From Dehalococcoidia bacterium (GTDB lineage: Bacteria; Chloroflexota; Dehalococcoidia; DSTF01; WHTK01): a DNA stretch of 64,000 nucleotides. The notes beneath the pieces are model-generated. The model ran no database searches. It was not told where the DNA came from and worked only from the letters and a program-made list of their open reading frames with translations. Positions 2,529 through 49,400 of the stretch are shown here, piece after piece. Location: assembly GCA_050185685.1 (NCBI GenBank), contig JBFWZE010000001.1, positions 2,421-66,420 of the forward strand, given 5' to 3'. Position numbers and translations under genes: made by a program. Each line of letters opens with the position of its first letter. Position 1 is the stretch's first letter.

Positions 2529-3737
2529 CTAGAGCACGTCAAGCGCTTGCGGCGCATTCGCCCGGTACTCGGCCCAGCTGTCCGCCGCCATGTATTCGTC
2601 CCAGCAGCGGTACATCCAGAGTTGCGTGTGCTCCGTCATCTTCGCGTCGATGCGGGGCGGCTTGCCCTCCTCGTGCACGATCTGGCCCCGGTTCAGGTTC
2701 ATCGCGTAGTTGAACGGGTAGCGGCGGTTGACGAGACTCTCGGTGCCGCGCGTGCAGTCCATCCAGTTCTCGCCGTCCTCGATGCCGAAGAAGCCGGCAG
2801 CGCCGAGGTGGTGGTTCTGGCGCATCCGGGTGCGCGCCGTCTTCTCTTCGTCCCACTCTTTGCCGTAGAAGCTGAAGCGCCAGAGCTCGGTGACGCCGGG
2901 GCCCTTCGGCATGCGCATCTCGATCTCGAAGCTGTTGAAGAAGACGTTGGGGAACAGGCTGCGCGCCGAGTCCGCCATCGTGCAGTGGCCGAACTCCGAG
3001 AGGTAGATCGCGCGCACCGGGTTCGGGTCGGCGTTCGGGTTCTGCGGAGGCCCACCGTACTCCGCCCGCGCCATCTTCGGCGACGCGTGGGTGATGATCA
3101 CGTGGTAGAAGTCCCAGTTGTTGTCGTGCGCCAGCTTCCAGTTCGCCGGCATCGAGTACTTCGAGACGCCGCCCCAGCACTGCATGTCGCCCTGGTCGGC
3201 GAACCCGTCGATGCCCTGGCGGCCGGCGGCGTCGAGGAAGTCGAAAAGGCTCGGCGAATCCGGGTCCATGGTCGCGAAGATCAGGCCGCGGTAGCTGTCG
3301 ACCTTCGCCGCCTTGATCAGGCCCCAGTTCTCGCGGTCGAGCTCCTCGTGGTAGACCTCTTTGAAGCCGGGGACACCGACGAGCGCGCCTTTGAGGTCGT
3401 AGGTCCAGCCGTGGTAGGTGCACATGAAGCTCGTCGCATGGCCTTCCTCGGCGCGGCAGACGGCATTGCCGCGGTGACGGCAGCTGTTCACGAGCACCTG
3501 CGGCTGCATGTCGTTGTCTCGCACGACGATGACCCTGTCTTCGCCGATGAAGGTCATGAAGAAGTCGCCGGGGTTCGGGATCTGACTGTCGTGGCACATG
3601 AAGTTCCAGCAGCGGGCGAAGATCCGTTCGAGCTCCTGCTGGTAGATCGCCTCGTCGGAGAAGATGATGCGGTCGACGAGCCCGCGCTGGGCGTCGACGT
3701 ACGTGGGCTTGCCGCTCGACCGGGTCACTGAGGCCAT
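2529..3737 (-). CDS. Rieske non-heme iron ring-hydroxylating oxygenase, alpha subunit (paralog 1)
   Basis: Rieske motif CRHRG...17 aa...CTYHGW and mononuclear Fe ligands DNNWDFYH...THAS. GGAGGAG ribosome-binding site 6 nt before the ATG at 3737. Confidence 0.85.
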   Translation of the reverse strand: MASVTRSSGKPTYVDAQRGLVDRIIFSDEAIYQQELERIFARCWNFMCHDSQIPNPGDFFMTFIGEDRVIVVRDNDMQPQVLVNSCRHRGNAVCRAEEGHATSFMCTYHGWTYDLKGALVGVPGFKEVYHEELDRENWGLIKAAKVDSYRGLIFATMDPDSPSLFDFLDAAGRQGIDGFADQGDMQCWGGVSKYSMPANWKLAHDNNWDFYHVIITHASPKMARAEYGGPPQNPNADPNPVRAIYLSEFGHCTMADSARSLFPNVFFNSFEIEMRMPKGPGVTELWRFSFYGKEWDEEKTARTRMRQNHHLGAAGFFGIEDGENWMDCTRGTESLVNRRYPFNYAMNLNRGQIVHEEGKPPRIDAKMTEHTQLWMYRCWDEYMAADSWAEYRANAPQALDVL

Positions 3738-3864: not shown

Positions 3865-6561
3865 ATGACCGCCCCGCTTCTGGAGACAAAGCTCTACCTG
3901 CCCCGGCGGAGCCGAAGCCTCGTGCCGCGGTCACGGCTTATCGACCGCCTCAACCGCGGCGCAGAGGCCAAGGTTATCCTCGTCTCCGCGCCTGCCGGCT
4001 TCGGCAAGACCACTCTGCTGGCCGACTGGCTTGCTGCCGCCTCCGAGACGCGGTCGGTGGCATGGCTGTCGCTCGACCAGCACGACAACAACGCGGCGGT
4101 CTTCTGGACATACGTCATTGCGGCGCTGCAGACCGTGGCGCCCGAGGCCGGCGCTTCCACAATGGCTCTGCTGCAGTCACCGCAGCCGCCGTCGATCGAT
4201 GCGATCCTGCCGCCGCTGCTGAACGAGCTGGGTGGCGCCGGTAACGAGGTCCTGCTGGTGCTCGACGACTACCACGTGATCGAAGACCCGGAGATCCAGG
4301 CCGGCGTCGGGTTCCTCGTCGAGCACCTGCCGCCACGTCTGCACCTCGTCATCGCCAGCCGGGCCGATCCGGCACTGCCCCTCGCCCGTCTCCGCGCACG
4401 CGGTGAGCTCACAGAGCTGCGCGCTGCCGACCTGCGATTCCGGCCCGAAGAAGCCGCGGCCTACCTCAACGAAGTCATGGGGCTCGAGCTGACTGCAGAC
4501 GACATCGCGGCTCTCGAGGCTCGTACCGAGGGCTGGATCGCCGCTCTCCAGCTCGCCGCGCTTTCGATGCAGGGGCGCGAGGATGTCAGCGGCTTTATCG
4601 CGGGTTTCACCGGGGATGACCGCTACATCGTCGACTACCTGGTCGAGGAGGTGCTGCAGCGTCAGCCCGCACCGGTCCGCGAATTCCTGCTGCAGACCGC
4701 GATCCTCGACCGGCTGTGCGGCCCGCTCTGCGATGCAGTCACCGGCCACGAAGGCGGTCAAACGATGCTCGAGGCGCTGGAGCGGGGCAATGTCTTCGTC
4801 GTCCATCTCGATGACCGCCGGCGCTGGTACCGCTACCACCACCTCTTCGCCGACGTGCTGCGTGCCCACCTGATCGATGAGCAGCCCGACCGCGTCCACG
4901 ACCTCCACCGTCGAGCGAGCGCCTGGTTCGAGCAGAACGGTGAGCGGCCGGAAGCGATCCGCCACGCGCTCGCAGCGGAGGACTTCGGCGGGGCGGCAGA
5001 CCTCATCGAGCTGTCGCTGTCGGCGTTGCTGAGTCAGCGGCAGGAGGCGCCCGTGCGCGAGTGGCTGCGGCGCATCCCGGCAGACGTGATCCGCGTTCGA
5101 CCGGTCCTCGGCGTCGGATACGTCGGGGTGTTGCTGCAAAGCGGCGACCTGCCGGCTGCTGAGCGCCAGCTGGCCGAAGTTGAGCGCCAGCTTGCGTCCA
5201 CAGCATCAGGGCAGTCCATCTACCAGGACGAGGTCGAGTTTCGCCGGCTCCCTGGCCAGGTGTCGATTTACCGGTCGGCATTCGCTCGGCTGACCGGCAA
5301 TCTGCCAGACACGGTGAGATACGCCCAGGCGGCGCTCGATGTCATGTCGGAGGACGACATCCAGGGGCGAGGCGCGGCACTATCGTTGCTCGGCCTCGCG
5401 TTGTGGGCCACAGGCGACATCGCGAACGGACGCAGGACGTTCGCGGAGGGCATCGCCCTCGTCCAGCGCGCCGGCTACGTCCCGGATTCGCTCTCCGGCA
5501 GCATCGCCATCGCGGAGATGTCGACGGCGCTGGGTCATCTCAACGAGGCGCTGCAGGTGCTCGAGCGGTCACTGAGCCTGGCATCCGAGCACGGCCCTCC
5601 GGCGCCCCTCGGCACCGCAGATGTCCACGTCGCGATCAGCGAGGTCTACCGCGAACGCAACGACCTGGACGCGGCGTTGGAGCACCTGGCGACGAGCAGG
5701 GAGCTCGGCGAAACTGCGGCTCTGCGCGAGAACCGCTATCGCTGGTTCGTCGCGATGGCGGGCGTCGAGACCGCGACAGGGCACTACGGGGAGGCTCTGG
5801 ACTTGCTTAGGCAGGCCGAAGCGCTCTACAGCCCCGGCTTCAACGCGGACACGCGTCCGATCGCGGCACTGCGGGCGAGGGTCTGGCTCATGCAGGGCAA
5901 GGTCGCCGACGCCCTCGCCTGGGCACGAGAGCGTGGACTCACCATCGAAGACGATGCTGTCTACGCCCGGGAGTTCGAGCACCTCACGCTGGTCAATGCA
6001 CTGCTCGCCCAGGCCGGAGCGGATGGCGATGCAACGCGTGACGTGCTCGCGTTCCTCGAGCGCCTCCTCCAAGCCGCCGAGGCGAACGGCCGCAACGGCA
6101 GCGTCGTCCAGGTCCTCGTCCTGCAGGCGCTGGCTCACCGGGCGGCGGGCGATATGCCTGCCGCGCTGCAGTCGCTGCGGCGGGCGTTGAGCCTCGCTGA
6201 GGTTGAGGGCTACGTCCGCGTCTTCGTCGATGAGCGCGCGCCGATGGCTGCGCTGCTCGAAGCGGCAGTGCAGCGCGGGATAGCGGTGTCCTACGCGCGG
6301 CGTCTCCTCGACGCGTTCGGTGTTGTAGACGAGAAGCCGTCGACCGCTTCGGCCTCGACAGCGCCTCAGCAGCTTCTGAGCGAGCGGGAGCTCGACGTGT
6401 TGCGCCTGCTTCGGGGCGACCTCGACGGCCCCGAGATCGCGCGGGAGCTCGTCGTGTCATTGAATACGATGCGCACCCATACGAAGAGCATCTACTCGAA
6501 GCTTGGCGTCAGCACACGGCGGGCGGCGGTGCGTCGCGCCGAAGAGCTCAATCTGATCTGA
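3865..6561 (+). CDS. LAL-family (MalT-like) large ATP-binding LuxR transcriptional regulator
   Basis: N-terminal P-loop [11 protein letters not shown], central TPR-like region, and C-terminal LuxR HTH (LSERELDVLRLL...VSLNTMRTHTKSIYSKLGV). AGGAG ribosome-binding site before the ATG. Confidence 0.85.
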   Translation: MTAPLLETKLYLPRRSRSLVPRSRLIDRLNRGAEAKVILVSAPAGFGKTTLLADWLAAASETRSVAWLSLDQHDNNAAVFWTYVIAALQTVAPEAGASTMALLQSPQPPSIDAILPPLLNELGGAGNEVLLVLDDYHVIEDPEIQAGVGFLVEHLPPRLHLVIASRADPALPLARLRARGELTELRAADLRFRPEEAAAYLNEVMGLELTADDIAALEARTEGWIAALQLAALSMQGREDVSGFIAGFTGDDRYIVDYLVEEVLQRQPAPVREFLLQTAILDRLCGPLCDAVTGHEGGQTMLEALERGNVFVVHLDDRRRWYRYHHLFADVLRAHLIDEQPDRVHDLHRRASAWFEQNGERPEAIRHALAAEDFGGAADLIELSLSALLSQRQEAPVREWLRRIPADVIRVRPVLGVGYVGVLLQSGDLPAAERQLAEVERQLASTASGQSIYQDEVEFRRLPGQVSIYRSAFARLTGNLPDTVRYAQAALDVMSEDDIQGRGAALSLLGLALWATGDIANGRRTFAEGIALVQRAGYVPDSLSGSIAIAEMSTALGHLNEALQVLERSLSLASEHGPPAPLGTADVHVAISEVYRERNDLDAALEHLATSRELGETAALRENRYRWFVAMAGVETATGHYGEALDLLRQAEALYSPGFNADTRPIAALRARVWLMQGKVADALAWARERGLTIEDDAVYAREFEHLTLVNALLAQAGADGDATRDVLAFLERLLQAAEANGRNGSVVQVLVLQALAHRAAGDMPAALQSLRRALSLAEVEGYVRVFVDERAPMAALLEAAVQRGIAVSYARRLLDAFGVVDEKPSTASASTAPQQLLSERELDVLRLLRGDLDGPEIARELVVSLNTMRTHTKSIYSKLGVSTRRAAVRRAEELNLI

Positions 6562-9627: not shown

Positions 9628-9743
9628 TCGTGAGGGGACGCCGCGACCGCGTCAATTGTTTCCTGAGCGTAATTTCAGGTTGTTGAGGGCCTGATGAGAC
9701 GGGCGTATTGTTGCCTCGTCGTTCGGGAGGTCGAAAGCAGGCG

Positions 9744-11054
9744 ATGTCGTACAGCGCTGACGCGATCCGGGGCATGGTAGACGTCGAGAACGGTCTGATC
9801 GACCGGCGCCTCTTCGGCGACGAGGCGCTGTATCAGCTCGAGCTGGAGCGCATCTTCGCCCGCTGCTGGCTCTTCCTCGCCCACGAGTCCGAGATCCCGA
9901 ACCCAAACGACTTCATTACTACCTATATGGGCGAAGACCCGGTCCTCGTCACCCGAGACAAGAATGGCAAGGTCGGCGCCTTCCTGAACGTCTGCCGGCA
10001 CCGCGGCTCCCGCGTCTGTCTCGCCGACCACGGCAACCAGGCGACGTTCTCCTGCAATTACCACGCCTGGGCCTACGCTTCCGACGGCAGGCTCGAGGCG
10101 GTTCCGCAGCTCGAACGCTGGTACGGCGGCCTCGACCTGAAGGACTGGGGCCTCTATCCCGTCGCCCAGCTCGATACCTACCAGGGCCTCATCTTCGCGA
10201 CCTTCGATGCCGAAGCGCCGCCGCTGCTCGACTACCTGGGTGACTTCACCTGGTACATCGACTCATGGCTCGACCGGCGCGAGGGTGGTTCGGAGGTCGT
10301 CGGCCACGTGCGACGCTGGGTGCTCGACACGAACTGGAAGGTGGCGGCCGAGAACTTCATCGGCGACGGCTACCACGGCTACGCCACGCACCAGTCGGCG
10401 ATGAACGTCGGCGCCGGCGGCGGTGCGCGACCGACAGACCGGTCGACGGGGCAACAGGTCGCGACGCGGTACGGTCACGGCGTCGGCGGCGCGTTCATCA
10501 CCGACCCCTCGATCAGCGCGATGTCGTACGCGCGTCTGCCCGGCCTCGATCCGGTGCTCGACGCCTATACGCGGGAGACGCTGGCAGAGACGCGCGAGCG
10601 CCTGGGACCGAAGGCAGACCTCTTCATCTCGATCCACGGCAGCATCTTCCCGAACTTCTCCTTCCAGCCGAACTTCGCGTCGATGCACGTCTGGCACCCG
10701 CGCGGCCCGGGCCGCATCGAGGTGCGCGATTACGCCATCGTCGACAAAGCGGCGCCGCAGGAGGTCAAGGACCGCATCGCCTGGCACTGCATGTACCGCC
10801 AGGGCCCGGCCGGCACCTGGGAGCAGGATGACTCCGACAACTGGCAGCAGGTCACCGACGCGGCCCGCGGGACGATCGCGAAGCGCGTGCCGATGAACTA
10901 CATGATGGGCCTGGGCGAGCGCATCCAGCACGACGAGATGCCGGGCTCATTCGCGATCGGCGCCGACCACAACCAGCGCAACATGTACCGCTGGTGGAGC
11001 GAGTACATGACGATGCACAGCTGGCGCGACCTCGCCTACCTGACCGGCCGCTGA
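9744..11054 (+). CDS. Rieske non-heme iron ring-hydroxylating oxygenase, alpha subunit (paralog 2, NdoB-like)
   Basis: CRHRGSRVC...CNYHAWAY Rieske motif and Fe ligands [12 protein letters not shown]. Start is uncertain: the ATG at 9744 has a GGGAGG 13 nt upstream, and the ORF is open from a TTG at 9708. Confidence 0.8.
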
Positions 11055-13229: not shown

Positions 13230-14431
13230 GGCGATAACCCCGCGGCCGGCTCACGCACCGGCGCTTTCGGCTTCGGCGTGAACAGCAGGATCGCCGAGGC
13301 GGCTGCGAGGGCGACTGCCGCTGCGATCCAGGCGAGGAGGAACTCACCGGTTTCGTCCTTGATGATGCCAGTGAGCGGGGCGCTGATCGCGCTCAGGCTG
13401 AGGCCGATCGGCATCGCGATGCCGCGGATCTTGCCGATGTTGGCCGCTCCGAAGTAGTTCGGCCAGGTCGCTGCACGGCTGACGTCGAAGCTGGCCGCAG
13501 CGACACCAAAGAGGCCGCTCGCGAGGAAGACGCCGGCGACGGTATCGGCCTGGATGATCGCGCCCAGCGTGACGACCATCGCCATTGTCGAGGCGGCGGC
13601 GAGGAAGCGCGGCGGCACACGGTCGACGGCCCAGCCGGTGGGGACGGAGATCAGCGCCGCCATCACCGCCTCGAACGAGAGCGCAAACGCGACTATCTGC
13701 GCGTCGACGCCCTGGTCGATGAAGTACGAAACGCGATAGATGCCGACCGTACCCATCGCGCCCATTCGCAGGCCGTCGACGCTTGCGAGCCGCCAGAACG
13801 CGGACGACTTCATCGCCTCTTCGCGCGTCCACGACACCTCGGCGATGACGTGGGAGGGTTTGCCGGTTTCGCCCGGCTCCGGCACAGCGCCGCCGTCAGG
13901 GAGCAGCCCCATGTCCTCCGGGCGCCGCCGGACGATCGCCGCGGCCACCATGATGATCGCCGTGCCGGTGATGCCGAGCACCAGCCACGCCTGCCGCCAG
14001 CCGATCTCGTCGATCAGGAACTGCGTGAGCGGCGGTGTGATGAAGATGCCGATCGGCAGCCCAAGGAACGTAATCGAGAGTGCCTTGCCGCGGTTCTTCA
14101 CAAACCAGGCCGAGATCGGCACCGTTGCGTACAGCGTGCCGCCCGCCATATAGAGGCCGGTGAGTCCGCTGACGAAGAGCAGAAAGATCAGCTGCCAGCC
14201 GTCGGTAATCGCCGCCAGCCCGATCACTGACGCGCCCGCGACAAGCCCGGCGATCACGAGCGGCAGTCGCGCCCCGTGGCGGTCGAGGTAGCGGCCGATC
14301 CACCAGCTCGTTGCGCTGAATCCAATCAGCCGCGCGGTCTGGCCGAAGCCGAAGACCGACTCGCCCATGCCCAGGTCCTCGGTCATCGGCTTGATGAACA
14401 GACCGAGGTTGATGCCGCCCATGCCGGTCAT
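13223..14431 (-). CDS. MFS transporter (paralog of the transporter at 24938-26258). The conserved first half of TM1 is encoded upstream of the first ATG.
   Basis: 402 aa from the ATG. The in-frame upstream sequence SRPRFFYGWVIVAALATVTGA matches the paralog N-terminus GRIFYGWWVVLGLAAISAV, but no ATG, GTG or TTG precedes it. Confidence 0.7.
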   Translation of the reverse strand: MTGMGGINLGLFIKPMTEDLGMGESVFGFGQTARLIGFSATSWWIGRYLDRHGARLPLVIAGLVAGASVIGLAAITDGWQLIFLLFVSGLTGLYMAGGTLYATVPISAWFVKNRGKALSITFLGLPIGIFITPPLTQFLIDEIGWRQAWLVLGITGTAIIMVAAAIVRRRPEDMGLLPDGGAVPEPGETGKPSHVIAEVSWTREEAMKSSAFWRLASVDGLRMGAMGTVGIYRVSYFIDQGVDAQIVAFALSFEAVMAALISVPTGWAVDRVPPRFLAAASTMAMVVTLGAIIQADTVAGVFLASGLFGVAAASFDVSRAATWPNYFGAANIGKIRGIAMPIGLSLSAISAPLTGIIKDETGEFLLAWIAAAVALAAASAILLFTPKPKAPVREPAAGLSPQ

Positions 14432-42111: not shown

Positions 42112-43716
42112 TTAGACCTCGATTGGCTTCAAAATGAGCGCCGTGTCAGGGACCACCTGCGAAGCACCGGCAATCGCCTGCTCGGTGCGGACCTTGCCCG
42201 GCACGACGACCGCTGCGAACACCGCAGCCAAACCGAGGAGCACCGCGCTGGCAATGAAGCCCGTCGTGAATGCGTCGACGAAGCTCGCCTGGGCCGCAGC
42301 CAGCAGAGTCGACTGCATGTCGGCGGGGAGCGATTGCGCGAGGACGGTCGCAACTCCGATGCCCTCGCTCGCCGGGTGCGCTACTTCGTGAGGCACGGTC
42401 GCGGCGAGTGCCGCCTCGACGTTGGCGCGATAGAGGGAGCTGACGAAGCTGCCTACTGCTGCGATACCGAGCGCGGACCCGAGCTCGCGGCTCACGTCAT
42501 TCAGGGCCGAACCGACACCGGCGTCGTCAACGGGGACGGCCGCCATCACCATGTCGGTCAGTGGCGCCATGCCGAGGCCGCCGGCGAGGCCGAACAGTGC
42601 GAGGTTGAGGATGATGCGAATCGTCGAGCTGTCAGCTTCGATCTGCGAGAGCAGCGCGACCGCAACCGCAACAACAGCAACCGCTGAACTGATAAGAAGC
42701 TTCGGTCCGACTCGGTGGACGACAGCGCCGGAGATCGGGGCGCCGATCATCATCGCGAATGCACAGGGAAGTCCCAGCAGGCCGGCCTCGAAGGCGGAGC
42801 GGCCCTGCACAAGCTGGTAGAACTGTGTCAGGAAGAAGAACACGACGGAGATGGCGAAGAAGACCGTGCCGACGATGACCACGCCGGCGGTGAAGTCACG
42901 TTCGCGGAAGAACTGCATCGGCAGCATTGGAGAAGACGCGCGGCGTTCGACGATGAAGAACAGGAGGCCTGCGACCGCCGACACTGCCAGGGATGCGAGG
43001 ACCTGGACGTCGGTCCAGCCGTGCTCGCCGCCGGCGATGATGCCGTAGACGAGAGTGCCGAGCGTAATGGTCCCGGTGATCGCGCCGGGGATGTCCAGGG
43101 CGCGGGGGCGCGGGTCGCGAGATTCCGGGACGATGGTGAGACCTGCGAGCGCGGCCAGGACGACCGGGACGTGCAGGAAGAAGATTGATGACCAGCCGGT
43201 GTGGTCGACGAGGTAGCCGCCGAAGGCCGGACCCATGCCCATCGCAAGGGCGCTGACGCCGGTCCAGATGCCGATGGCCTTGGCGCGCTCATCACGCGGG
43301 AAGACGTTGGTAATGATTGAAAGGGTTGCTGGCATGACGAGCGCGCCGCCGACACCTTGCAGGGCACGGAAGCCGATGAGCTGCTCTGCGCTCGTCGCGA
43401 GGCCTGCGCCAACAGACGCAGCGCCAAAGATGACCATGCCGGCAGTCAGCCAGCGCCGCCGGCCAAAGATGTCACCGATCGTCCCGCCTACCAGCAGGAG
43501 GCCGGCAAGCATCAGGACGTAGCCGTCGACGATCCACTGCATCTCGCCGGTGGACGCGCGCAGGTCGCGTGCCATTGACGGCAGCGCCGTGTTCACAATC
43601 GTGTTGTCGAGCATCAGCATGAAGATGCTGAGCGACATGACTGCGAGGATGGCCCAGCGGCGCGGGTGGCCGCTGGACTCCTCGAACTGCTCAAGGACAT
43701 TGTTCGTGGTCTTCAT
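42112..43716 (-). CDS. DHA2-family (EmrB/QacA-like, 14-TMS) MFS efflux transporter
   Basis: 534 aa. MLMLDNTIVNTALP and GDIFGRRR motifs of drug:H+ antiporter-2. 40-nt gap to the upstream Cys-rich gene. Confidence 0.85.
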   Translation of the reverse strand: MKTTNNVLEQFEESSGHPRRWAILAVMSLSIFMLMLDNTIVNTALPSMARDLRASTGEMQWIVDGYVLMLAGLLLVGGTIGDIFGRRRWLTAGMVIFGAASVGAGLATSAEQLIGFRALQGVGGALVMPATLSIITNVFPRDERAKAIGIWTGVSALAMGMGPAFGGYLVDHTGWSSIFFLHVPVVLAALAGLTIVPESRDPRPRALDIPGAITGTITLGTLVYGIIAGGEHGWTDVQVLASLAVSAVAGLLFFIVERRASSPMLPMQFFRERDFTAGVVIVGTVFFAISVVFFFLTQFYQLVQGRSAFEAGLLGLPCAFAMMIGAPISGAVVHRVGPKLLISSAVAVVAVAVALLSQIEADSSTIRIILNLALFGLAGGLGMAPLTDMVMAAVPVDDAGVGSALNDVSRELGSALGIAAVGSFVSSLYRANVEAALAATVPHEVAHPASEGIGVATVLAQSLPADMQSTLLAAAQASFVDAFTTGFIASAVLLGLAAVFAAVVVPGKVRTEQAIAGASQVVPDTALILKPIEV

Positions 43717-43756
43717 CTCGTTATCCCTTTCGCTTGTCTCTGACTGACCGAGGGGG

Positions 43757-44149
43757 CTAGGCGTGAGTCACGGCCATGCCGGCGCAGGTGCAAGACGCCT
43801 GCTCACACCCGCAAGCGCTGCAGGTGTTGACGCCCGCGCAGGAGCACTTCACGCACTCGCAGACGCCGGCCGATGCCGCGCAGGTGCAGGTTTCGCCCGA
43901 CGCGCACGAGCACTCGCCGAGGTGGCAGGAAGCGCCGCAGAAGCAGGGGTCGCAGGCGCATCCGCCGAGCGAGTCGCAGTCGCAGGCTTCGTTCGATGAG
44001 CAGATGCAGGCGGCGCTGGTTGCGACGACGCCGCAAGAGCAGTCAGTACAGCCGCAGGTCGTGCAGTCGCACTGCTCGGTGCAGGAGCACTCGTTGCAGA
44101 TGCAGACGGCGTCGATCCGGTTCGGGAGGGTCCTGGCGATGGTGTTCAT
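43757..44149 (-). CDS. Cysteine-rich protein (130 aa, 32 Cys, about 15 CxC motifs), metallothionein-like
   Basis: AAGGAG ribosome-binding site 9 nt before the ATG at 44149. MNTIARTLPNRIDAVCICNECSCTEQCDCTTCGCTDCSC...CSACGCEQASCTCAGMAVTHA. GC-rich TGC codons match host usage. Sits between the GNAT and the MFS genes on the same strand. Confidence 0.6.
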   Translation of the reverse strand: MNTIARTLPNRIDAVCICNECSCTEQCDCTTCGCTDCSCGVVATSAACICSSNEACDCDSLGGCACDPCFCGASCHLGECSCASGETCTCAASAGVCECVKCSCAGVNTCSACGCEQASCTCAGMAVTHA

Positions 44150-44219
44150 TTCGAGGTTCTCCTTGCTTTCTTGCTGATGTGCTGGGTGGATTTCGATGGA
44201 CGTCACTTGAGGTGTCTCC

Positions 44220-44864
44220 TTAACGGGCCGGCACGATGGCGCAGGCGCAGCCACCGGATGCTGTCTGAGGCCGCTCGCAGCAGCAGCCGTCGCAGCCCCA
44301 GCAGGGGTCGAGGTCGCTGTCCGCAAGCCGGATGCGGAAGACCTGGCTTGCCACTTCGGTGCGCTCCTGGTCTTCAAAGGGAGCGAGGGCCGACCTGCCG
44401 CTCTCGTCGAAGGACAGCTCAGCCACCGGCACGAAGCCGGCGCGCTCGATGCCGATCCCGGAGGGAAGGTTCTCGGGGGCGAAGAGGATCCAGACCCTTG
44501 TTGCCGGAGGGCATTCGCGGCGGATGATCTCGGCCAGGAGCTGCGGGTAGATCCCGCGGCCACGAAAGCCAGGCAGCGTCGCGAAGTCCCACAGGTAGCG
44601 GTGACCGGCAGGCAGCTGGACTTCGAGGTCCAGCTCGCCGATCGAGGCGTTTCGCGTCGCCACCCAGCCATAGCCGGCCGGCTTGCCTTCCAGCATCGCG
44701 AGGTACGGCCGGTGTCCGTCCCGCCTCCGCCGCGTCACTTCGTCAATTGAGAGGTTGGCGATGCGGGCCAGCAGACCGTCATCGGCGGCCGCTTCGACCG
44801 TCAGGCCGGGCTGCAGCGCCAGGTGAGGAAGTCCGTCTTCGTACCACCAGGTTGCGAGTGCCAT
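44220..44864 (-). CDS. GNAT-family N-acyltransferase with a Cys-rich C-terminal tail
   Basis: GGAAGGAGA ribosome-binding site. GNAT motif A LPGFRGRGIYPQLL. The C-terminus DPCWGCDGCCCERPQTASGGCACAIVPAR has 8 Cys in 30 residues. Confidence 0.65.
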   Translation of the reverse strand: MALATWWYEDGLPHLALQPGLTVEAAADDGLLARIANLSIDEVTRRRRDGHRPYLAMLEGKPAGYGWVATRNASIGELDLEVQLPAGHRYLWDFATLPGFRGRGIYPQLLAEIIRRECPPATRVWILFAPENLPSGIGIERAGFVPVAELSFDESGRSALAPFEDQERTEVASQVFRIRLADSDLDPCWGCDGCCCERPQTASGGCACAIVPAR

Positions 44865-45031
44865 CTACTTGTCTCCTTCCTGTTTGTTTCTGCAGTCAGG
44901 CTAGGAGTGGCACGAGAGGGTGAAATCACACCGATGGGTGAAGCCGAAGGGTGATTGCGAGCGATTGAACGGGTGGGTACACACCCGGGGTTGGTAGACT
45001 TGCGATCGTTCTGAGGGAGGAACCCCGATCC

Positions 45032-47689
45032 ATGGTCGAGTCGGCGCCGGCTCCGCTACTCGAGACCAAGCTGCGGCCGCCGCACGCGCGAGAGTCCGTT
45101 CTGGCTCGACCTCGCCTCGTCGAATTGACTCAGCGCGTCCTCGAAGTGCCGCTCACCCTGGCGGCGGCGCCCGCCGGGTTCGGAAAGACGACGCTTCTTC
45201 TCGATTGGTACAACCGGCTACATCCGCATGCACGGGCCTGGGTGTCACTCGACGAGACCGATAACGATGCGGACCAGCTGGCGCTGTATCTGCGTACCGC
45301 TGTGGGCCGGACCCTGAAAGACGCGGTGCTGGAAGGCGAGCAGTTCTCGCTCGAGGCGACCGTCGCGGAGTTCGTGAACCGAACGGCGGCCAGCAATGAG
45401 CCGCTCATCCTCTTTCTCGACGACTATCACCTCATCGAATCCCCTCGGGCTCACGCGGCGCTAACCTTCCTCCTCGAGCATCAGCCGCCGGCGTTCCACC
45501 TCGTCCTGGGCACCCGTCATGACCCGCCGCTGCCCCTGGCTCGTCTGCGCGCTCGCGGGCGTCTGCTCGAGGTACGTGCCGAGGACTTGAGGTTCACGTC
45601 CGAGGAAGCGGACGGCATGCTCCAGGAACTGATCCCTTTCGACCTCTCCAGCGAGCAGCTGCGGGCACTCGAAGAGAAGACGGAGGGGTGGGCGGCAGCG
45701 CTGCAGCTCGCGGCGCTTTCACTGCAACGTTCGACGAACGCCGGCGCCTTCATCGAGGCGTTCAGCGGCTCGAATCGATTCGTCTTCGACTACCTGGCCG
45801 AGGAGGTCTTTCAGCGGCAGGACGCGGAGACGCAGACCTTCCTTCAGCAAACGGCGATCCTCGAGCGCCTCACCGGTGGCCTCTGTGACGCCGTCACCGG
45901 GTTGCCACGGGGCGACGTACGGCTGTCGGATCTGCTCAGGGCGAATCTCTTCCTGAATGCCCTCGGGGACGAAGAGCGCTGGTATCGCTACCATCACCTC
46001 TTTCGCGATTTCCTTCGCCGCACGCTTGAACAGCGCATGCCCGATGGGGTCCGTGGCCTGCACCGGCGCGCTTCCGAGTGGTTCTCTGCGAACGGCTTGC
46101 TGGACGAGGCGGTGGCACACGCGGTTGAGTCGGGCGATCAGGCCCTCGCCCTCACGCTGATCGAGCGGGGAATGCCTGCAGTGACGATGCGCGGCGACTT
46201 CCTTACGCCTGCTTTCGAGCGATGGATGGGGAGCTTGCCGCGGGACGAGGTCTATCGGCGGCCTCGCCTTGCGTTACCTCGGGCGCTAGCCTCTGCCCTG
46301 AGAGGCAGAGTCACAGAGGCGGAGCAAGTCGTAGACCGCGTCTCGAGGGTGGTCCTGGGGCAGGAGGCGCTGCCGCATGAAGCCGATGAAGACGAGCGCC
46401 GTGCGTTCTTCGGAATGCTGCAGACGGCAAGGGTCTACATCGCACGGTTCCGCGGCCGCCCGGACGAAGCGCTGGAGATCGCGGACGCGACGATGACCGA
46501 ACTCCCGCCTGAGGAGCCCGCACGCGCCTGGCTCGGCATGGTGCGACAGATGGTGCTGTTCGAGAAGTGGGCGCCGGACCTCGACGTGACGCTGGAGCAG
46601 GCGGCGCGAGTGTGTTTCAGCCAGGGGCACCTCGGGGGCGCAGTTGGCCTCCTCAATTTCGAGTTTTATCGCCTCGTCCTCTGCGGGCGGCTCGTCGACG
46701 CCGGAGACCACCTTCGCCGGTCCTTCCAGCGTGCGTATGACCATCATGCTCTGCCCGTCGTAGGCATGCTTCACGGAGCCCAGTCTGAGCTTCACTACGA
46801 GCGCGGTGAGCTGGACGACGCGGAAGAGGAAGCAAACCGCTGCCTTTCTTTTGGCGCGCCCGGTTTCACTCCCGGTGTCTTCACTCCGCCGGAGCTGACG
46901 CTCGCTCGTCTGCAGATCGCGGATGGCAGGAGCGACGAAGCGCGGGAATCGCTGCGGCGGCTCGAGGACCGGGCGCGACCGGTTGAAACGGTGCAGGGCC
47001 TGCGCTCCTACCCCGCCTTCATCGCCGACGTCCGCCTTCGGCTCGGTGACCTCGAAGGTGCGATGCGCTGGGCTGAGGCGTGCGGCGTCGGTCCCGACAC
47101 GCAACCCGATTTCGAAAACGAGTTCGTCTGTCTTGTCTACGCGCGTGTGCTCCAGGCTTCGGGCCGCGGCAGTGAGGTACTGTCGCTCCTCGCCCGCCTT
47201 CGGGAGGCGGCGAGCGATGCCGGGCGCCAGGGCCGCGTCGTGGACGCGTGGCTCATCGAGGCATGCATCCACTGGCGCAACGGTGACCAGCGAACGGCGA
47301 TGAGCACCCTAAACCGAGTGCTTCCCGTTGTGGAGCGTGAAAGGTATGTGAGGACACTCCTCGACCTCGGCCCGCCGATGCTGACGATGCTACATGAGGC
47401 CGCCGTCGGCGGCCCGCACGCCGCCTACGCATCGCAGCTGCTTTCGCTTGCCGGTGAAGAGGTATCGCCGTCAGCGCGTGCTCGGACAGCGAGCCCGGAC
47501 GATCTCAGCGAACGTGAGCAGGACGTGATCCGCCTGCTGGCGAAGGGCTACGCGAACCGCGAGATCGCCGACGAGCTTGTAGTCTCGCTTGATACGGTGA
47601 AGACGCACCTTCGCAATGCCTACATGAAGCTTGGCGTTCACAGCCGCACCCAGGCGATCACCAGGGCCCAGGAGCGCAAGCTGATCTAG
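45032..47689 (+). CDS. LAL-family (MalT-like) large ATP-binding LuxR regulator (paralog 2)
   Basis: P-loop [11 protein letters not shown], and a C-terminal Lux[47 protein letters not shown] ribosome-binding site. Confidence 0.85.
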
Positions 47690-47728
47690 CTCTCAGGCGC
47701 GTTAATTGAGCCAGAACGTCTGGTGTCT

Positions 47729-47815
47729 TGGTGCCGGGAGTGGGGATCGAACCCACATGTCATTGCTGACGGCGGATTTTAAGTCCGCTGCGTTTGCCAA
47801 TTTCGCCATCCCGGC
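47729..47815 (-). tRNA. tRNA-Leu (anticodon TAA), with a long variable arm and encoded CCA
   Basis: The reverse complement gives GCCGGGATGGCGAAATTGGCAAACGCAGCGGACTTAAAATCCGCCGTCAGCAATGACATGTGGGTTCGATCCCCACTCCCGGCACCA. It has a 7-bp acceptor stem, anticodon loop CTTAAAA and T-loop GGTTCGATCC. Confidence 0.8.
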
Positions 47816-48077: not shown

Positions 48078-49400
48078 TCAGACGCGGTCCTCGGGAAGCG
48101 ATGGCCGGTTGCTCTTCAGGTCTTCCCAGCTCTCAGCCGCCATCCAGGCCGCCCAGTTGCGGTAGTGCCAGAGCTGCGCATGCTCGTTCACGCCGGTGAG
48201 GATGTAGCCCGGGCCGGTCTCGTCGCGCGTCACTTCGCCGTGGCCGAGGTTCATCGCGTAGTGGAGCGGGAACTTCGAGCTCATTACGCCCGACATCGCC
48301 CGCGTGCTCTCGCCCCAGTTCTCGCCGTCCTCCTGCTCCAGCATGCCTGCCGGGCCGAAGACGTGGTTCGCCATGCCGACGAGCATGCGGTGGTGCTGCG
48401 GCGGCAGCTCCTTGTTGAGGACCGTGAACCACCAGATCTCGGTGCTGTAGGGGCCTTTGGGGTGGCGCAGGCTGATCTGGCTGCTGCCGGTTGCGACCCA
48501 CATGTTCGGGAAGATATGCGGGTGACCGGCCGCCTTTGCGCCGACGGTACCGAGCGCCTGCTTCGCCTCCGGCCGCTCCTGCCATGAGGGGTCGTTGCCA
48601 ATCTTGCGCAGGAGCCGCTCGCTCTCGCCGAGCATCGCTGGGCCGCCGATCGCGTGGCCGTAGTCACCCAGCACGGCGATGTGCTCCGGGAAGTACTGGT
48701 TGTCCTTGCGCTCGAAGGGGAACATGCCGGTGAGCACCGCGGACGAGTGAGTCAGCGGCGCGTGGTACCAGTCCCAGACGTTGTCGGCGGCGAACTTCCA
48801 GTTGCAGGGGATCGTGAACTTCTGAATGCCGCCGACGATCGCCATATCGCCGCGCATTGCCAGCTCATCGATCGAAAGCCGGCCGACGTCGCCGAGGTAC
48901 TCGTCGAGGTCCGGCGCCGTCTCGTCCATCGTCGCAAAGACGAAGCCGTGGTAGCTGTCGACCTTCGCCGCCTTGATCAGGCCCCAGTTCTCGCGGTCAA
49001 GCTCCTCGTGGTAGACCTCCTTGAAGCCCGGTACACCGACGAGGTTGCCCTTCAGGTCGTACGTCCAGCCGTGGTAGGTGCACATGAATGACGTCGCATG
49101 ACCTTCTTCGGCGCGGCAGACGGCATTGCCTCGGTGACGGCAGCTGTTGATCAGCACCTGCGGCTGCATGTCGTTGTCGCGAACGACGATGACGCGGTCT
49201 TCGCCGATGAAGGTCATGAAGAAGTCGCCGGGGTTCGGGATCTGGCTGTCGTGGCACATGAAGTTCCATGCGCGCGCGAAGATGCGCTCTAGCTCGACCT
49301 GGTAGATGTCGGGGTCGGTGAAGATACGCCGGTCGACGACCGCCTTCTCGCCATCCACGAAGCGCAGGAAGTCTTTCGGCTGGTTCAGTTGTAGTGTCAC
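48078..49400 (-). CDS. Rieske non-heme iron ring-hydroxylating oxygenase, alpha subunit (paralog 3). Its N-terminal Rieske domain is near-identical to paralog 1.
   Basis: CRHRGNAVC...CTYHGW motif and Fe ligands DNVWDWYH...THSS. GTG start with an AAGGGAGA ribosome-binding site. It lies 34 nt downstream of the solute-binding-protein gene. Confidence 0.85.
   Translation of the reverse strand: MTLQLNQPKDFLRFVDGEKAVVDRRIFTDPDIYQVELERIFARAWNFMCHDSQIPNPGDFFMTFIGEDRVIVVRDNDMQPQVLINSCRHRGNAVCRAEEGHATSFMCTYHGWTYDLKGNLVGVPGFKEVYHEELDRENWGLIKAAKVDSYHGFVFATMDETAPDLDEYLGDVGRLSIDELAMRGDMAIVGGIQKFTIPCNWKFAADNVWDWYHAPLTHSSAVLTGMFPFERKDNQYFPEHIAVLGDYGHAIGGPAMLGESERLLRKIGNDPSWQERPEAKQALGTVGAKAAGHPHIFPNMWVATGSSQISLRHPKGPYSTEIWWFTVLNKELPPQHHRMLVGMANHVFGPAGMLEQEDGENWGESTRAMSGVMSSKFPLHYAMNLGHGEVTRDETGPGYILTGVNEHAQLWHYRNWAAWMAAESWEDLKSNRPSLPEDRV

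Follow-up and report, generated by a model that had tools for sequence, protein, structure and literature searches.

To our knowledge the characterised metallothionein families of bacteria are few, comprising BmtA/SmtA, MymT and a recent thioredoxin chimera. The present analysis deals with a four-gene module in the genome of a Dehalococcoidia bacterium (assembly GCA_050185685.1, contig JBFWZE010000001.1), in which the gene of a Cys-rich, metallothionein-like protein lies between the genes of a GNAT acyltransferase and an MFS efflux pump, with a LAL regulator gene transcribed divergently from this trio. Positions given without prefix refer to the analysed stretch of 64,000 nucleotides (hereafter the window); L-numbers denote fetched loci or contigs and P-numbers denote proteins. 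The regulator, the acetyltransferase and the pump are unremarkable representatives of large families. With the Cys-rich protein a new sequence family is added to the metallothionein-like proteins, a known and polyphyletic kind, and the operon and the type of regulation in which its gene is found are unusual.

As of 2022, the name metallothionein was given to only six prokaryotic sequences in UniProt (PMC11705764). The closest described pattern to that of the Cys-rich protein is found in eukaryotes, namely in the Cu-metallothioneins of Tetrahymena (ciliate subfamily 7b) and in the long modular Cu-metallothioneins of fungi. In the Tetrahymena proteins, which comprise about 100-180 aa and contain 24-30% Cys, 92% of the Cys residues occur in CxC motifs and the sequence is organised in CKCX2-5CXC repeats (PMC4862169). 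The protein of the window resembles the ciliate and fungal proteins in its length and Cys content, in CxC pairs that stand 2-6 residues apart and in its growth by repeat duplication (PMC4862169). However, it shares no sequence homology with the ciliate proteins, it is acidic, and the central residue of the CxC motif, which is mostly Lys (CKC) in ciliates, is Ser, Thr, Ala, Asp, Glu, Ile or Gly. It furthermore differs from them in its bacterial host, in being encoded in an operon together with a GNAT protein and an MFS pump, and in that its metal binding is a prediction.

SmtA is controlled by the ArsR-family repressor SmtB and not by a LAL regulator. Like the protein described here, BmtA and SmtA (PF02069; PDB 1JJD, 6GV7) are cytosolic bacterial Cys-rich proteins, for which metal binding is established. 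The N-terminus of SmtA, KCACEPCLCN(VDP) as checked against PDB 1JJD, resembles the most conserved motif of the new family, GGCAC(D/A)PC(F/L)CG (window 43930-43975, residues 59-73; L096:5810-5870 and 6005-6060), and a pairwise BLASTP comparison aligned 19-23 residues with E=0.003. Membership in the BmtA/SmtA family (PF02069) was nevertheless rejected, as the likeness is a local motif of 13-23 residues, no Pfam match was obtained at E<=10, and hhalign against an alignment of SmtA and PflQ2 returned a probability of 4.6% over 13 columns. The zinc-finger-like core of SmtA, GxxYCSxxCA (YCSxxCA), and its His ligands (1JJD, 6GV7) are absent from the Cys-rich protein, which is also 2.5-4 times longer.

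The mycobacterial Cu metallothionein MymT is likewise a small bacterial Cys-rich protein that was first missed by annotation, and it has been described as a 'non-annotated open reading frame' (PMC7558416). It differs from the present protein in its size of 4.9 kDa, its capacity of up to about 6 Cu(I), its induction by copper and its unrelated sequence. We know of no GNAT or MFS operon partners of MymT. The high-capacity cytosolic Cu(I) thiolate stores of bacteria are Csp1 and Csp3 (PMC7558416). These copper storage proteins (Csps) are pre-folded four-helix bundles with Cys residues lining the helices, whereas the Cys-rich protein is characterised by the CxC motif and has no confident fold. Its identity as a Csp was rejected, since it gave no Pfam match (DUF326-type profile) and its AlphaFold2 (AF2) model is almost free of helix.

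Taking the regulator into account, the same architecture of a STAND/AAA ATPase, MalT-type TPR repeats and a LuxR/GerE helix-turn-helix (HTH) domain is known from MalT of E. coli and from PikD, GdmR and AveR of Streptomyces. LAL regulators are ligand- and ATP-dependent activators of adjacent operons. Unlike in the known LALs, the presumed target operon in the window encodes a GNAT protein, a metallothionein-like protein and an efflux pump.

Coding strand and features of the Cys-rich gene

The Cys-rich gene (43757..44149, minus strand, with the ATG at 44149 and the stop codon at 43757) encodes 130 aa and is absent from public annotation. Public gene calls choose instead an antisense, Gln-rich open reading frame (ORF) of 133 aa (43776..44177, plus strand), which appears at NCBI, for instance, as 'hypothetical protein AB7T32_06210'. 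The antisense ORF is also called in L001 (6599-7000), in L091-L095 (L091:10001-10402) and in a JGI contig, the resulting proteins (P0121-P0123; 131-133 aa) representing three lineages. This annotation stems from NCBI PGAP and from the callers behind the JGI and Logan records. On the related contigs all gene calls are antisense except in one lineage (L096), where the caller takes the sense ORF and thus predicts a Cys-rich protein of 205 aa. We are nevertheless highly confident that the Cys-rich gene is real and that the ORF in the databases, which we judge to be spurious, is a wrong-strand call, the true protein being missing from the protein databases because gene callers take the antisense ORF.

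The 32 TGN codons of the sense ORF are without exception TGC (30) or TGT (2) and never TGG or TGA. At 22 of these sites the antisense codon would be free to take a synonymous pyrimidine, but a purine is present at all 22, which preserves Cys instead of Trp or a stop codon in the sense frame. Given the codon usage of the window, the probability of such a TGY-only pattern under antisense coding is about 10^-6.1, and 10^-6.7 for the orthologue. The TGN pattern is also retained in the P0123 lineage, known only by its antisense protein, when this protein is decoded back. Furthermore, the comparison with the orthologue of 75% identity in L089 (L089:5001-5393) revealed that 33 of the 130 residues differ, with Cys lost at only one of its 32 positions (hypergeometric P=3e-4). 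The sense ORF possesses a Shine-Dalgarno (SD) sequence, AAGGAG, 9 nt before its ATG, its start context AAGCAAGGAGAAnCTCGAnATG is common to the window and L096, and it is oriented with both of its operon neighbours. For the antisense ORF no SD sequence was detected at a functional distance, and it would converge with the GNAT gene and diverge from the MFS gene with gaps of 43 and 59 nt (59 nt to the MFS start at 43716).

The opposite view, that the Cys-rich ORF is not a gene and that either the antisense ORF is real or the spacer is non-coding, could refer to the choice of the antisense ORF by gene callers in at least three lineages, to an antisense frame that is open in all lineages (although that of the L096 version has gained an internal stop) and to the dN/dS ratio of 0.32 in this frame, as compared with 0.25 in the sense frame. 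The antisense ORF also equals the sense ORF in GC content at third codon positions (GC3 = 0.89 in both frames) and exceeds it in the generic codon score (+0.13 versus -0.12 per codon). However, third codon positions are common to sense and antisense, the antisense frame stays open because the sense protein lacks Tyr, and the preference of the codon score for the antisense frame reflects the low frequency of Cys (0.8%) among the genes used for training. Due to the shared third positions, frame discrimination by GC3 and codon score was dropped and the TGY test was used instead. Together with the conserved Cys positions, the purines at the free antisense sites, the SD sequence and start context kept in the window and L096, the orientation compatible with an operon and the choice of the sense ORF by the gene caller in L096, this renders the opposite view very improbable. 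The dN/dS ratio of 0.25 indicates that the region is under purifying selection. The two differences between the window and L001 within the ORF are non-synonymous in both frames and therefore uninformative. Peptides predicted for the sense product include TLPNR and IDAVCICNECSCTEQ.

The encoded protein contains 32 Cys residues in 130 aa (24.6%), compared with 0.8% Cys in the long ORFs of the window. Thirty of the 32 (94%) are arranged in 15 CxC pairs, which are spaced by 2-8 residues. The protein is acidic (13 Asp and Glu versus 3 Lys and Arg) and has a single Phe, two His and neither Tyr nor Trp. Its composition agrees with the operational criteria for metallothioneins (about 15-30% Cys, clusters of CxC, CxxC or CC, few or no aromatic residues), and metal binding may be predicted on this basis. 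The AF2 single-sequence model (pLDDT 47.6) is disordered with almost no helix, so that no autonomous fold is predicted. Metallothioneins fold only upon binding metal (PMC7558416). As far as can be read from the sequence, there is no hydrophobic N-terminus, signal peptide or leader-cleavage motif.

The Cys-rich protein could not be assigned to a known family, since the proteins of the window, L089 and L096 gave no Pfam match at E<=10 and the protein of the window, which had first been pointed out in an earlier note on this DNA made from the sequence alone, has no NCBIfam match. Searches with the Cys-rich protein against a word-indexed database of 5.8 billion sequences and, by phmmer, against 1.84 billion representatives yielded no match, and a profile search against the PDB returned only chance matches to viral glycoproteins. 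Homologues were recovered solely by a six-frame scan of metagenome contigs and by using the antisense ORF as query; hidden Markov model (HMM) searches with composition correction miss even correctly called members.

The homologue in L096 (L096:5606-6223), whose relatedness is indicated by tblastn with composition correction (E about 6e-7), has 205 aa, 43 Cys, 20 CxC motifs and one CC pair. Its central motif block is duplicated internally (NLDGCACAPCLCGAVCQIDPCAC versus SVGGCTCDPCLCGASSQIDLCAC), which shows that the family expands by duplication of repeat units (130 versus 205 aa). With 75% identity between the window and L089, as compared with 87-91% for its neighbours, the Cys-rich protein evolves faster than these while its Cys residues are kept. 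The first 15 residues (MNTI...) are moderately conserved.

Conservation of the module and its putative operator

The minus-strand operon begins with the GNAT gene (44220..44864), continues with the Cys-rich gene after 70 nt and ends with the MFS gene (42112..43716) after a further 40 nt. All three genes are preceded by SD-like sequences (GGAAGGAG, AAGGAG and AAAGGGA). The LAL gene (45032..47689, plus strand) diverges from the GNAT gene across an intergenic region of 167 nt (44865-45031), and 39 nt past its stop codon begins the gene of a tRNA-Leu(UAA) (47729..47815, minus strand), which we regard as a neighbouring boundary and not as a conserved part of the module. The coordinates, the gaps of 70 and 40 nt, the divergent region of 167 bp and the SD sequences given in the earlier note were all correct to the base, and its tRNA-Leu(TAA) directly past the regulator was recovered by ARAGORN and Rfam. 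This tRNA was the sole match of the Rfam scan, which did not reveal a riboswitch or other family. Neither a terminator-like site between the genes on the operon strand nor a sigma-70 consensus promoter nor a tandem DNA repeat was found. Near-identical DNA (99.87% over 6 kb) is present in assembly GCA_050179895.1, and an identical GNAT protein carries the public label 'MAG: GNAT family N-acetyltransferase [Dehalococcoidia bacterium]'.

For the analysis of synteny 80 genomic GNAT loci were fetched together with the contigs of the closest proteins. The module of the LAL gene and the divergent GNAT, Cys-rich and MFS genes recurs in two further Dehalococcoidia lineages. In L089/L091 (GCA_016307145.1) the identities to the window amount to 88% for LAL, 91% for GNAT, 75% for the Cys-rich protein and 87% for MFS (86.5% in L089), and in L096/L097 to about 70% for GNAT and about 84% for MFS, next to the Cys-rich homologue of 205 aa. 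The MFS gene always follows directly after the Cys-rich gene, and what the short contig of P0123 contains agrees with the gene order of the module. Homology to the window ends at about 42148 and about 47713, beyond which the flanks are unrelated in all three lineages, so that the four genes behave as a cohesive unit. The operon is real and common to a few close relatives.

Outside this clade neither a tblastn match nor a comparable Cys-rich ORF beside the GNAT gene was detected in the other roughly 85 loci (1.03 Mb). In L098, whose GNAT protein is 65% identical, the Cys-rich gene is absent. Its position is occupied there by an ORF of 119 aa (L098:3245-3604), after which come the genes of another GNAT protein, unrelated to the first, and of a different MFS protein (445 aa). 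The GNAT relatives of at most 68% identity lack the Cys-rich gene as well and have the MFS gene on the other side of LAL. Thus, in L003-L011 and L083 (GNAT identity 56-62%) the LAL gene is divergent from the GNAT gene and an orthologous MFS gene, sometimes accompanied by an alpha/beta-hydrolase gene, is located downstream of LAL. The divergent pairing of LAL and GNAT is kept in L003-L011, L083, L089 and L096. The interpretation of the earlier note hence withstood its own synteny test at short range, with the module recurring in two further lineages between unrelated flanks and the Cys-rich gene absent beyond the clade.

Among the more distantly related Chloroflexota the genes of LAL, an alpha/beta-hydrolase, GNAT and a beta-lactamase-fold protein (PF00144) most often follow one another in this order on one strand; the fetched flanks contain LAL in 47 and the hydrolase in 38 of the 80 loci. 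This recurrent cluster was observed in Anaerolineae, Chloroflexia, Caldilineae and groups related to them (L014-L082; for example L085:4032-10290). Both the pairing of LAL with GNAT and the Cys tail of the latter are family-wide traits in Chloroflexota, where they usually come with hydrolase and beta-lactamase-fold genes. We conclude that the phylum has long possessed the LAL-GNAT(-MFS) core and carries it widely, and that only one Dehalococcoidia clade has added the metallothionein-like gene, which is of recent origin, evolves fast and varies in its number of repeat units. An ancestral order with MFS downstream of LAL, followed by an inversion of the divergent LAL/GNAT pair, fits the gene order; it found no support in the identity of the adjacent tRNA genes (Met and Lys versus Leu) and was not retained.

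The alignment of 12 LAL/GNAT intergenic regions revealed a single conserved block, [A/T]TCACCC-N5-8-TCACCC-N4-GKGTGA, with a second, hexamer block conserved about 22 nt downstream. In the window this putative operator extends over 44918..44955 (minus strand) and reads ATCACCC-N7-TCACCC-ATCG-GTGTGA-TT-TCACCC. Its imperfect palindrome (44926-44941) is centred about 70 nt upstream of the GNAT ATG. The corresponding regular expression was found at the same position in every close locus spanning the LAL/GNAT intergenic region except L010, the count being 18 locus ids, of which several are one contig under two ids. The motif TCACCC-N4-GKGTGA differs from the MalT box. It occurs once in the 64-kb window, and elsewhere in about 1 Mb of fetched loci it was encountered only as second copies next to LAL in L089/L091 and in L096. 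Of these, the copy of L096 (1978-1993) is located 86 nt upstream of an intact ABC-2 exporter operon (genes 118-1907), and that of L091 (13942-13957) precedes the degraded remnant of an ABC ATPase gene (122 aa; ORF 14026-14394). On this far side of the LAL gene, where L096 and L091 carry the second operator and the ABC genes, the window has the tRNA-Leu gene. Judged by its sequence, the element looks like the site of a LuxR-HTH activator overlapping a -35 region, to which LAL may bind, and its copies suggest a small LAL regulon that consists of the GNAT operon and export systems.

The position of the module beside a tRNA gene had led to the notion of tRNA-linked accessory DNA, in the sense of a small, mobile genomic island that was horizontally acquired. 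The homology to L091 and L096 indeed ends within about 25 nt of the LAL stop codon and at the MFS stop codon, the flanks are unrelated, and the window has the 3' end of tRNA-Leu directly beside the module. However, no second copy of the tRNA 3' end (att repeat) is present in the window, and no recombinase, integrase or transposase is evident among its 50 candidate ORFs, 17 of which were scanned against Pfam. The GC content of the module (0.64-0.66 versus a window mean of about 0.65) and its codon usage are like those of its neighbours. Moreover, the tRNA gene is absent from the same position in the relatives, being replaced by the ABC-2 transporter operon in L096 and by the ABC ATPase remnant in L091. 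Since the features of a tRNA-linked genomic island, i.e. an integrase, a repeat of the tRNA 3' end and a deviant composition, were thus not found, we regard such an origin as improbable; given the unrelated flanks, some mobility of the module is conceivable, with nothing that points to a mechanism. A tRNA-Met gene (L004:6697-6773) and a tRNA-Lys gene (L009:6938-7013) were noticed just downstream of the GNAT gene, so that the LAL/GNAT pair tends to adjoin tRNA genes without having a conserved partner among them.

Regulator, acetyltransferase and pump

The regulator of 885 aa has the size of LAL proteins (about 900 aa) and comprises a STAND ATPase domain (Pfam AAA_16) with the Walker A sequence APAGFGKTT, MalT-like TPR repeats (TPR_MalT, 8e-40) and a C-terminal HTH domain (GerE, 4e-19), which assigns it to the LAL family. 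The NCBIfam model of MalT (NF003420) was aligned at residues 2-782 of its 903 residues with 399.7 bits, which is below the cut-off of 537, and the identity of the protein as a MalT equivalog was therefore rejected. An involvement in STAND-based anti-phage defence was rejected as well, because with PADLOC only the HTH region of LAL matched, namely to CARF3 models, and the other three proteins gave no match.

A second MalT-like LAL paralogue of 898 aa is encoded elsewhere in the window (3865-6561, plus strand), divergent from a gene for the alpha-subunit of a Rieske ring-hydroxylating oxygenase (2529-3737, minus strand). It is 56% identical to a second LAL protein encoded beyond the MFS gene in L083. 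The window holds furthermore two Rieske oxygenase genes (9708-11054 and 48078-49400), several MFS genes and the gene of a large catalase (132-2033). None of the genes identified in the 64 kb is a metal-homeostasis gene. In L091 a cluster resembling copper-resistance genes and encoding a multicopper oxidase, a YHS protein and a P-type ATPase (L091:14823-19137) is situated 1-5 kb beyond LAL; it is absent from the window and from L096.

The GNAT protein (214 aa) matches Pfam Acetyltransf_1 (PF00583) with 27.4 bits (cut-off 20.7) and carries an RGRG motif at residues 101-104, in which G102 and G104 are nearly invariant and which corresponds to the acetyl-CoA pyrophosphate-binding R/QxxGxG motif of this superfamily. 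Its AF2 model (pLDDT 87.8) displays the standard GNAT fold with low confidence for the tail residues 190-214. Foldseek against the PDB gave 175 GNAT matches at E<=1e-3; as these were generic (VipF, AAC(6') and polyamine acetyltransferases; TM-scores of about 0.45-0.5), no substrate follows from them.

At least 696 homologues of the GNAT protein were found, almost all of them in Chloroflexota. Among 113 sequences the C-terminal motif P187-C188-W189-x-C191 is invariant or nearly so, and C196, C206 and C208 are present in at least 90%. This PCWxC...C...CxCA tail (residues 187-214, window 44220-44310) probably forms a metal-binding, zinc-knuckle-like extension, and its low AF2 confidence is as might be expected for a metal-dependent element. 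We know of no described GNAT protein with such a Cys tail. It was named in the earlier note as a feature of the module but is spread over the whole family, almost all of whose members have no Cys-rich neighbour. The tail shows no significant similarity to the Cys-rich protein beyond composition. An origin of the Cys-rich gene by amplification of the tail-coding sequence (repeat families D3 and D14) was rejected, because Smith-Waterman scores were no better than those of shuffled sequences (P=0.13-0.69).

The pump of 534 aa is an MFS protein (Pfam MFS_1, 1.2e-53) and reached 260.2 bits with TIGR00711 (DHA2/EmrB subfamily; cut-off 230.2) over residues 24-494, which places it in the DHA2 family. 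It aligns in full length to the models of the DHA2 drug:H+ antiporters EmrB, LfrA, QacA, SmvA and TcmA. As it stays below the cut-off of every specific equivalog model, including those of LfrA, SmvA, TcmA and QacA, its substrate is not assignable.

Proposed function and significance

The reading that we prefer, tentatively and somewhat short of calling it probable, is that of a LAL-activated stress operon in which a long-established core of acetylation and efflux was joined, within one clade, by a new metallothionein-like thiolate buffer. LAL would bind the TCACCC-N4-GKGTGA operator overlapping the -35 region of the divergent promoter and, on sensing a small-molecule signal, would switch on the three presumably co-transcribed genes. 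The GNAT protein with its probably metal-binding Cys extension may modify an amine-bearing toxic or signalling compound, and the DHA2 exporter may expel this compound or its acetylated form by proton antiport. The 130-aa protein, presumably cytoplasmic, with 32 Cys in CxC pairs would act as a high-capacity thiolate sink, which by analogy with the stoichiometry of mammalian metallothioneins might hold roughly 10-12 Zn/Cd(II) or up to about 19 Cu(I). The copper genes near LAL in L091 count in favour of a link to metals as circumstantial evidence from one lineage.

Several points weigh against this stress operon with a thiolate buffer. Metal binding is read from composition alone. The conserved module includes neither a metal-sensing regulator of the ArsR/SmtB, MerR or CsoR type nor a metal transporter, and copper genes adjoin it in only one of three lineages, none being present in the 64-kb window. 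DHA2 pumps are known as exporters of organic compounds and not of metals, and the usual partners of the GNAT family are hydrolases. Only a few contigs are known to carry the Cys-rich gene, and HMMER-based searches are blind to its composition, so that kinship of its product to a known family may be hidden. The association of GNAT with LAL, alpha/beta-hydrolase and a beta-lactamase-fold protein suggests organic-compound chemistry rather than metals; the type of the pump, the GNAT protein and the family-wide hydrolase partners point to the handling of organic compounds. The module, which consists of LAL, GNAT, Cys-rich protein and DHA2 MFS only, does not correspond to a known metal-resistance operon (cop, czc, ars, mer or smt), and it does not match a described system for ribosomally synthesised and post-translationally modified peptides (RiPPs) either, as the earlier note had already stated.

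A more far-reaching version of the preferred reading seems quite doubtful at present. It describes a bacterial defence in which the repeat-expandable poly-CxC protein is the working part and would capture soft metals, metal-ionophore antibiotics or electrophiles; the load would be passed to or processed together with the GNAT protein carrying the metal-binding tail and be removed by proton-driven efflux, under the control of a STAND/LuxR activator that senses a ligand, in place of a classical metal sensor. The family would have been born recently in Dehalococcoidia and be hidden from standard annotation as gene finders prefer the antisense strand.

Among the alternatives, a defence against antibiotics or electrophiles fares best, although we still consider it unlikely. 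The Cys-rich protein would then protect from thiol-reactive or metal-chelating organic toxicants, and not from free metal ions, either as a sink of sacrificial thiols or by buffering zinc; the compound would be inactivated by the GNAT protein through acylation and expelled by the MFS pump, joined by ABC-2 transporters in the relatives. This agrees with drug exporters (LfrA, EmrB, QacA, TcmA) being the nearest models of the pump, with AAC(6') aminoglycoside and polyamine acetyltransferases among the nearest folds of the GNAT protein, with the alpha/beta-hydrolase and beta-lactamase-fold partners of its family, with the second operator ahead of the ABC-2 exporter operon in L096 and with the absence of a metal sensor from the module. 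However, no substrate can be derived for such a defence, the Foldseek matches of the GNAT protein are generic (TM-scores of at most 0.5), and copper genes adjoin the module in L091. It furthermore counts against an electrophile sink that we know of no characterised bacterial precedent for a protein thiol sink directed at organic electrophiles.

A RiPP precursor or secreted Cys-rich product, tailored by the GNAT protein and exported by the MFS pump, is hardly likely despite a small Cys-rich ORF between acetyltransferase and exporter genes and its moderately conserved 15 N-terminal residues, since no radical-SAM, YcaO, lanthipeptide synthetase, MNIO or protease gene was called in any of the three contexts, where LAL, GNAT and MFS (plus ABC-2) are the only conserved neighbours, since the GNAT family occurs in hundreds of genomes without a Cys-rich ORF, since the protein lacks a signal peptide or leader-cleavage motif, and since RiPP precursors are usually short leader-plus-core peptides, to which 130-205 aa, 32-43 Cys and variable repeats do not fit.

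The earlier interpretation, a thiol-based module or a secreted product in tRNA-associated DNA, holds in part. The synteny of the module and the Cys-rich protein without a family were upheld, and a conserved operator was added; the GNAT tail as a special feature, the tRNA-linked DNA and the secreted product had to be given up, the latter because the protein has no signal-peptide-like N-terminus and no conserved maturation enzyme is encoded nearby. The narrow distribution of the Cys-rich gene limits any claim, and its function is predicted from sequence.

If the proposed function applies, a long metallothionein-like family with CxC repeats in Chloroflexota would extend the known repertoire of thiol and metal buffering in bacteria, to which its control by a LAL regulator together with an acetyltransferase and a drug-type pump in the same operon would contribute further. 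The locus also illustrates how, opposite a TGC-rich gene of a high-GC genome, an ORF arises that equals the gene in GC3, surpasses it in generic codon score and, as a consequence, is annotated in its place; should this weakness be general, further Cys-rich genes annotated on the wrong strand may lie concealed in genomes of high GC content. Finally, the conserved operator and the LAL/hydrolase/GNAT/beta-lactamase-fold cluster that extends across Chloroflexota offer a testable way into an uncharacterised regulon of this little-studied phylum.

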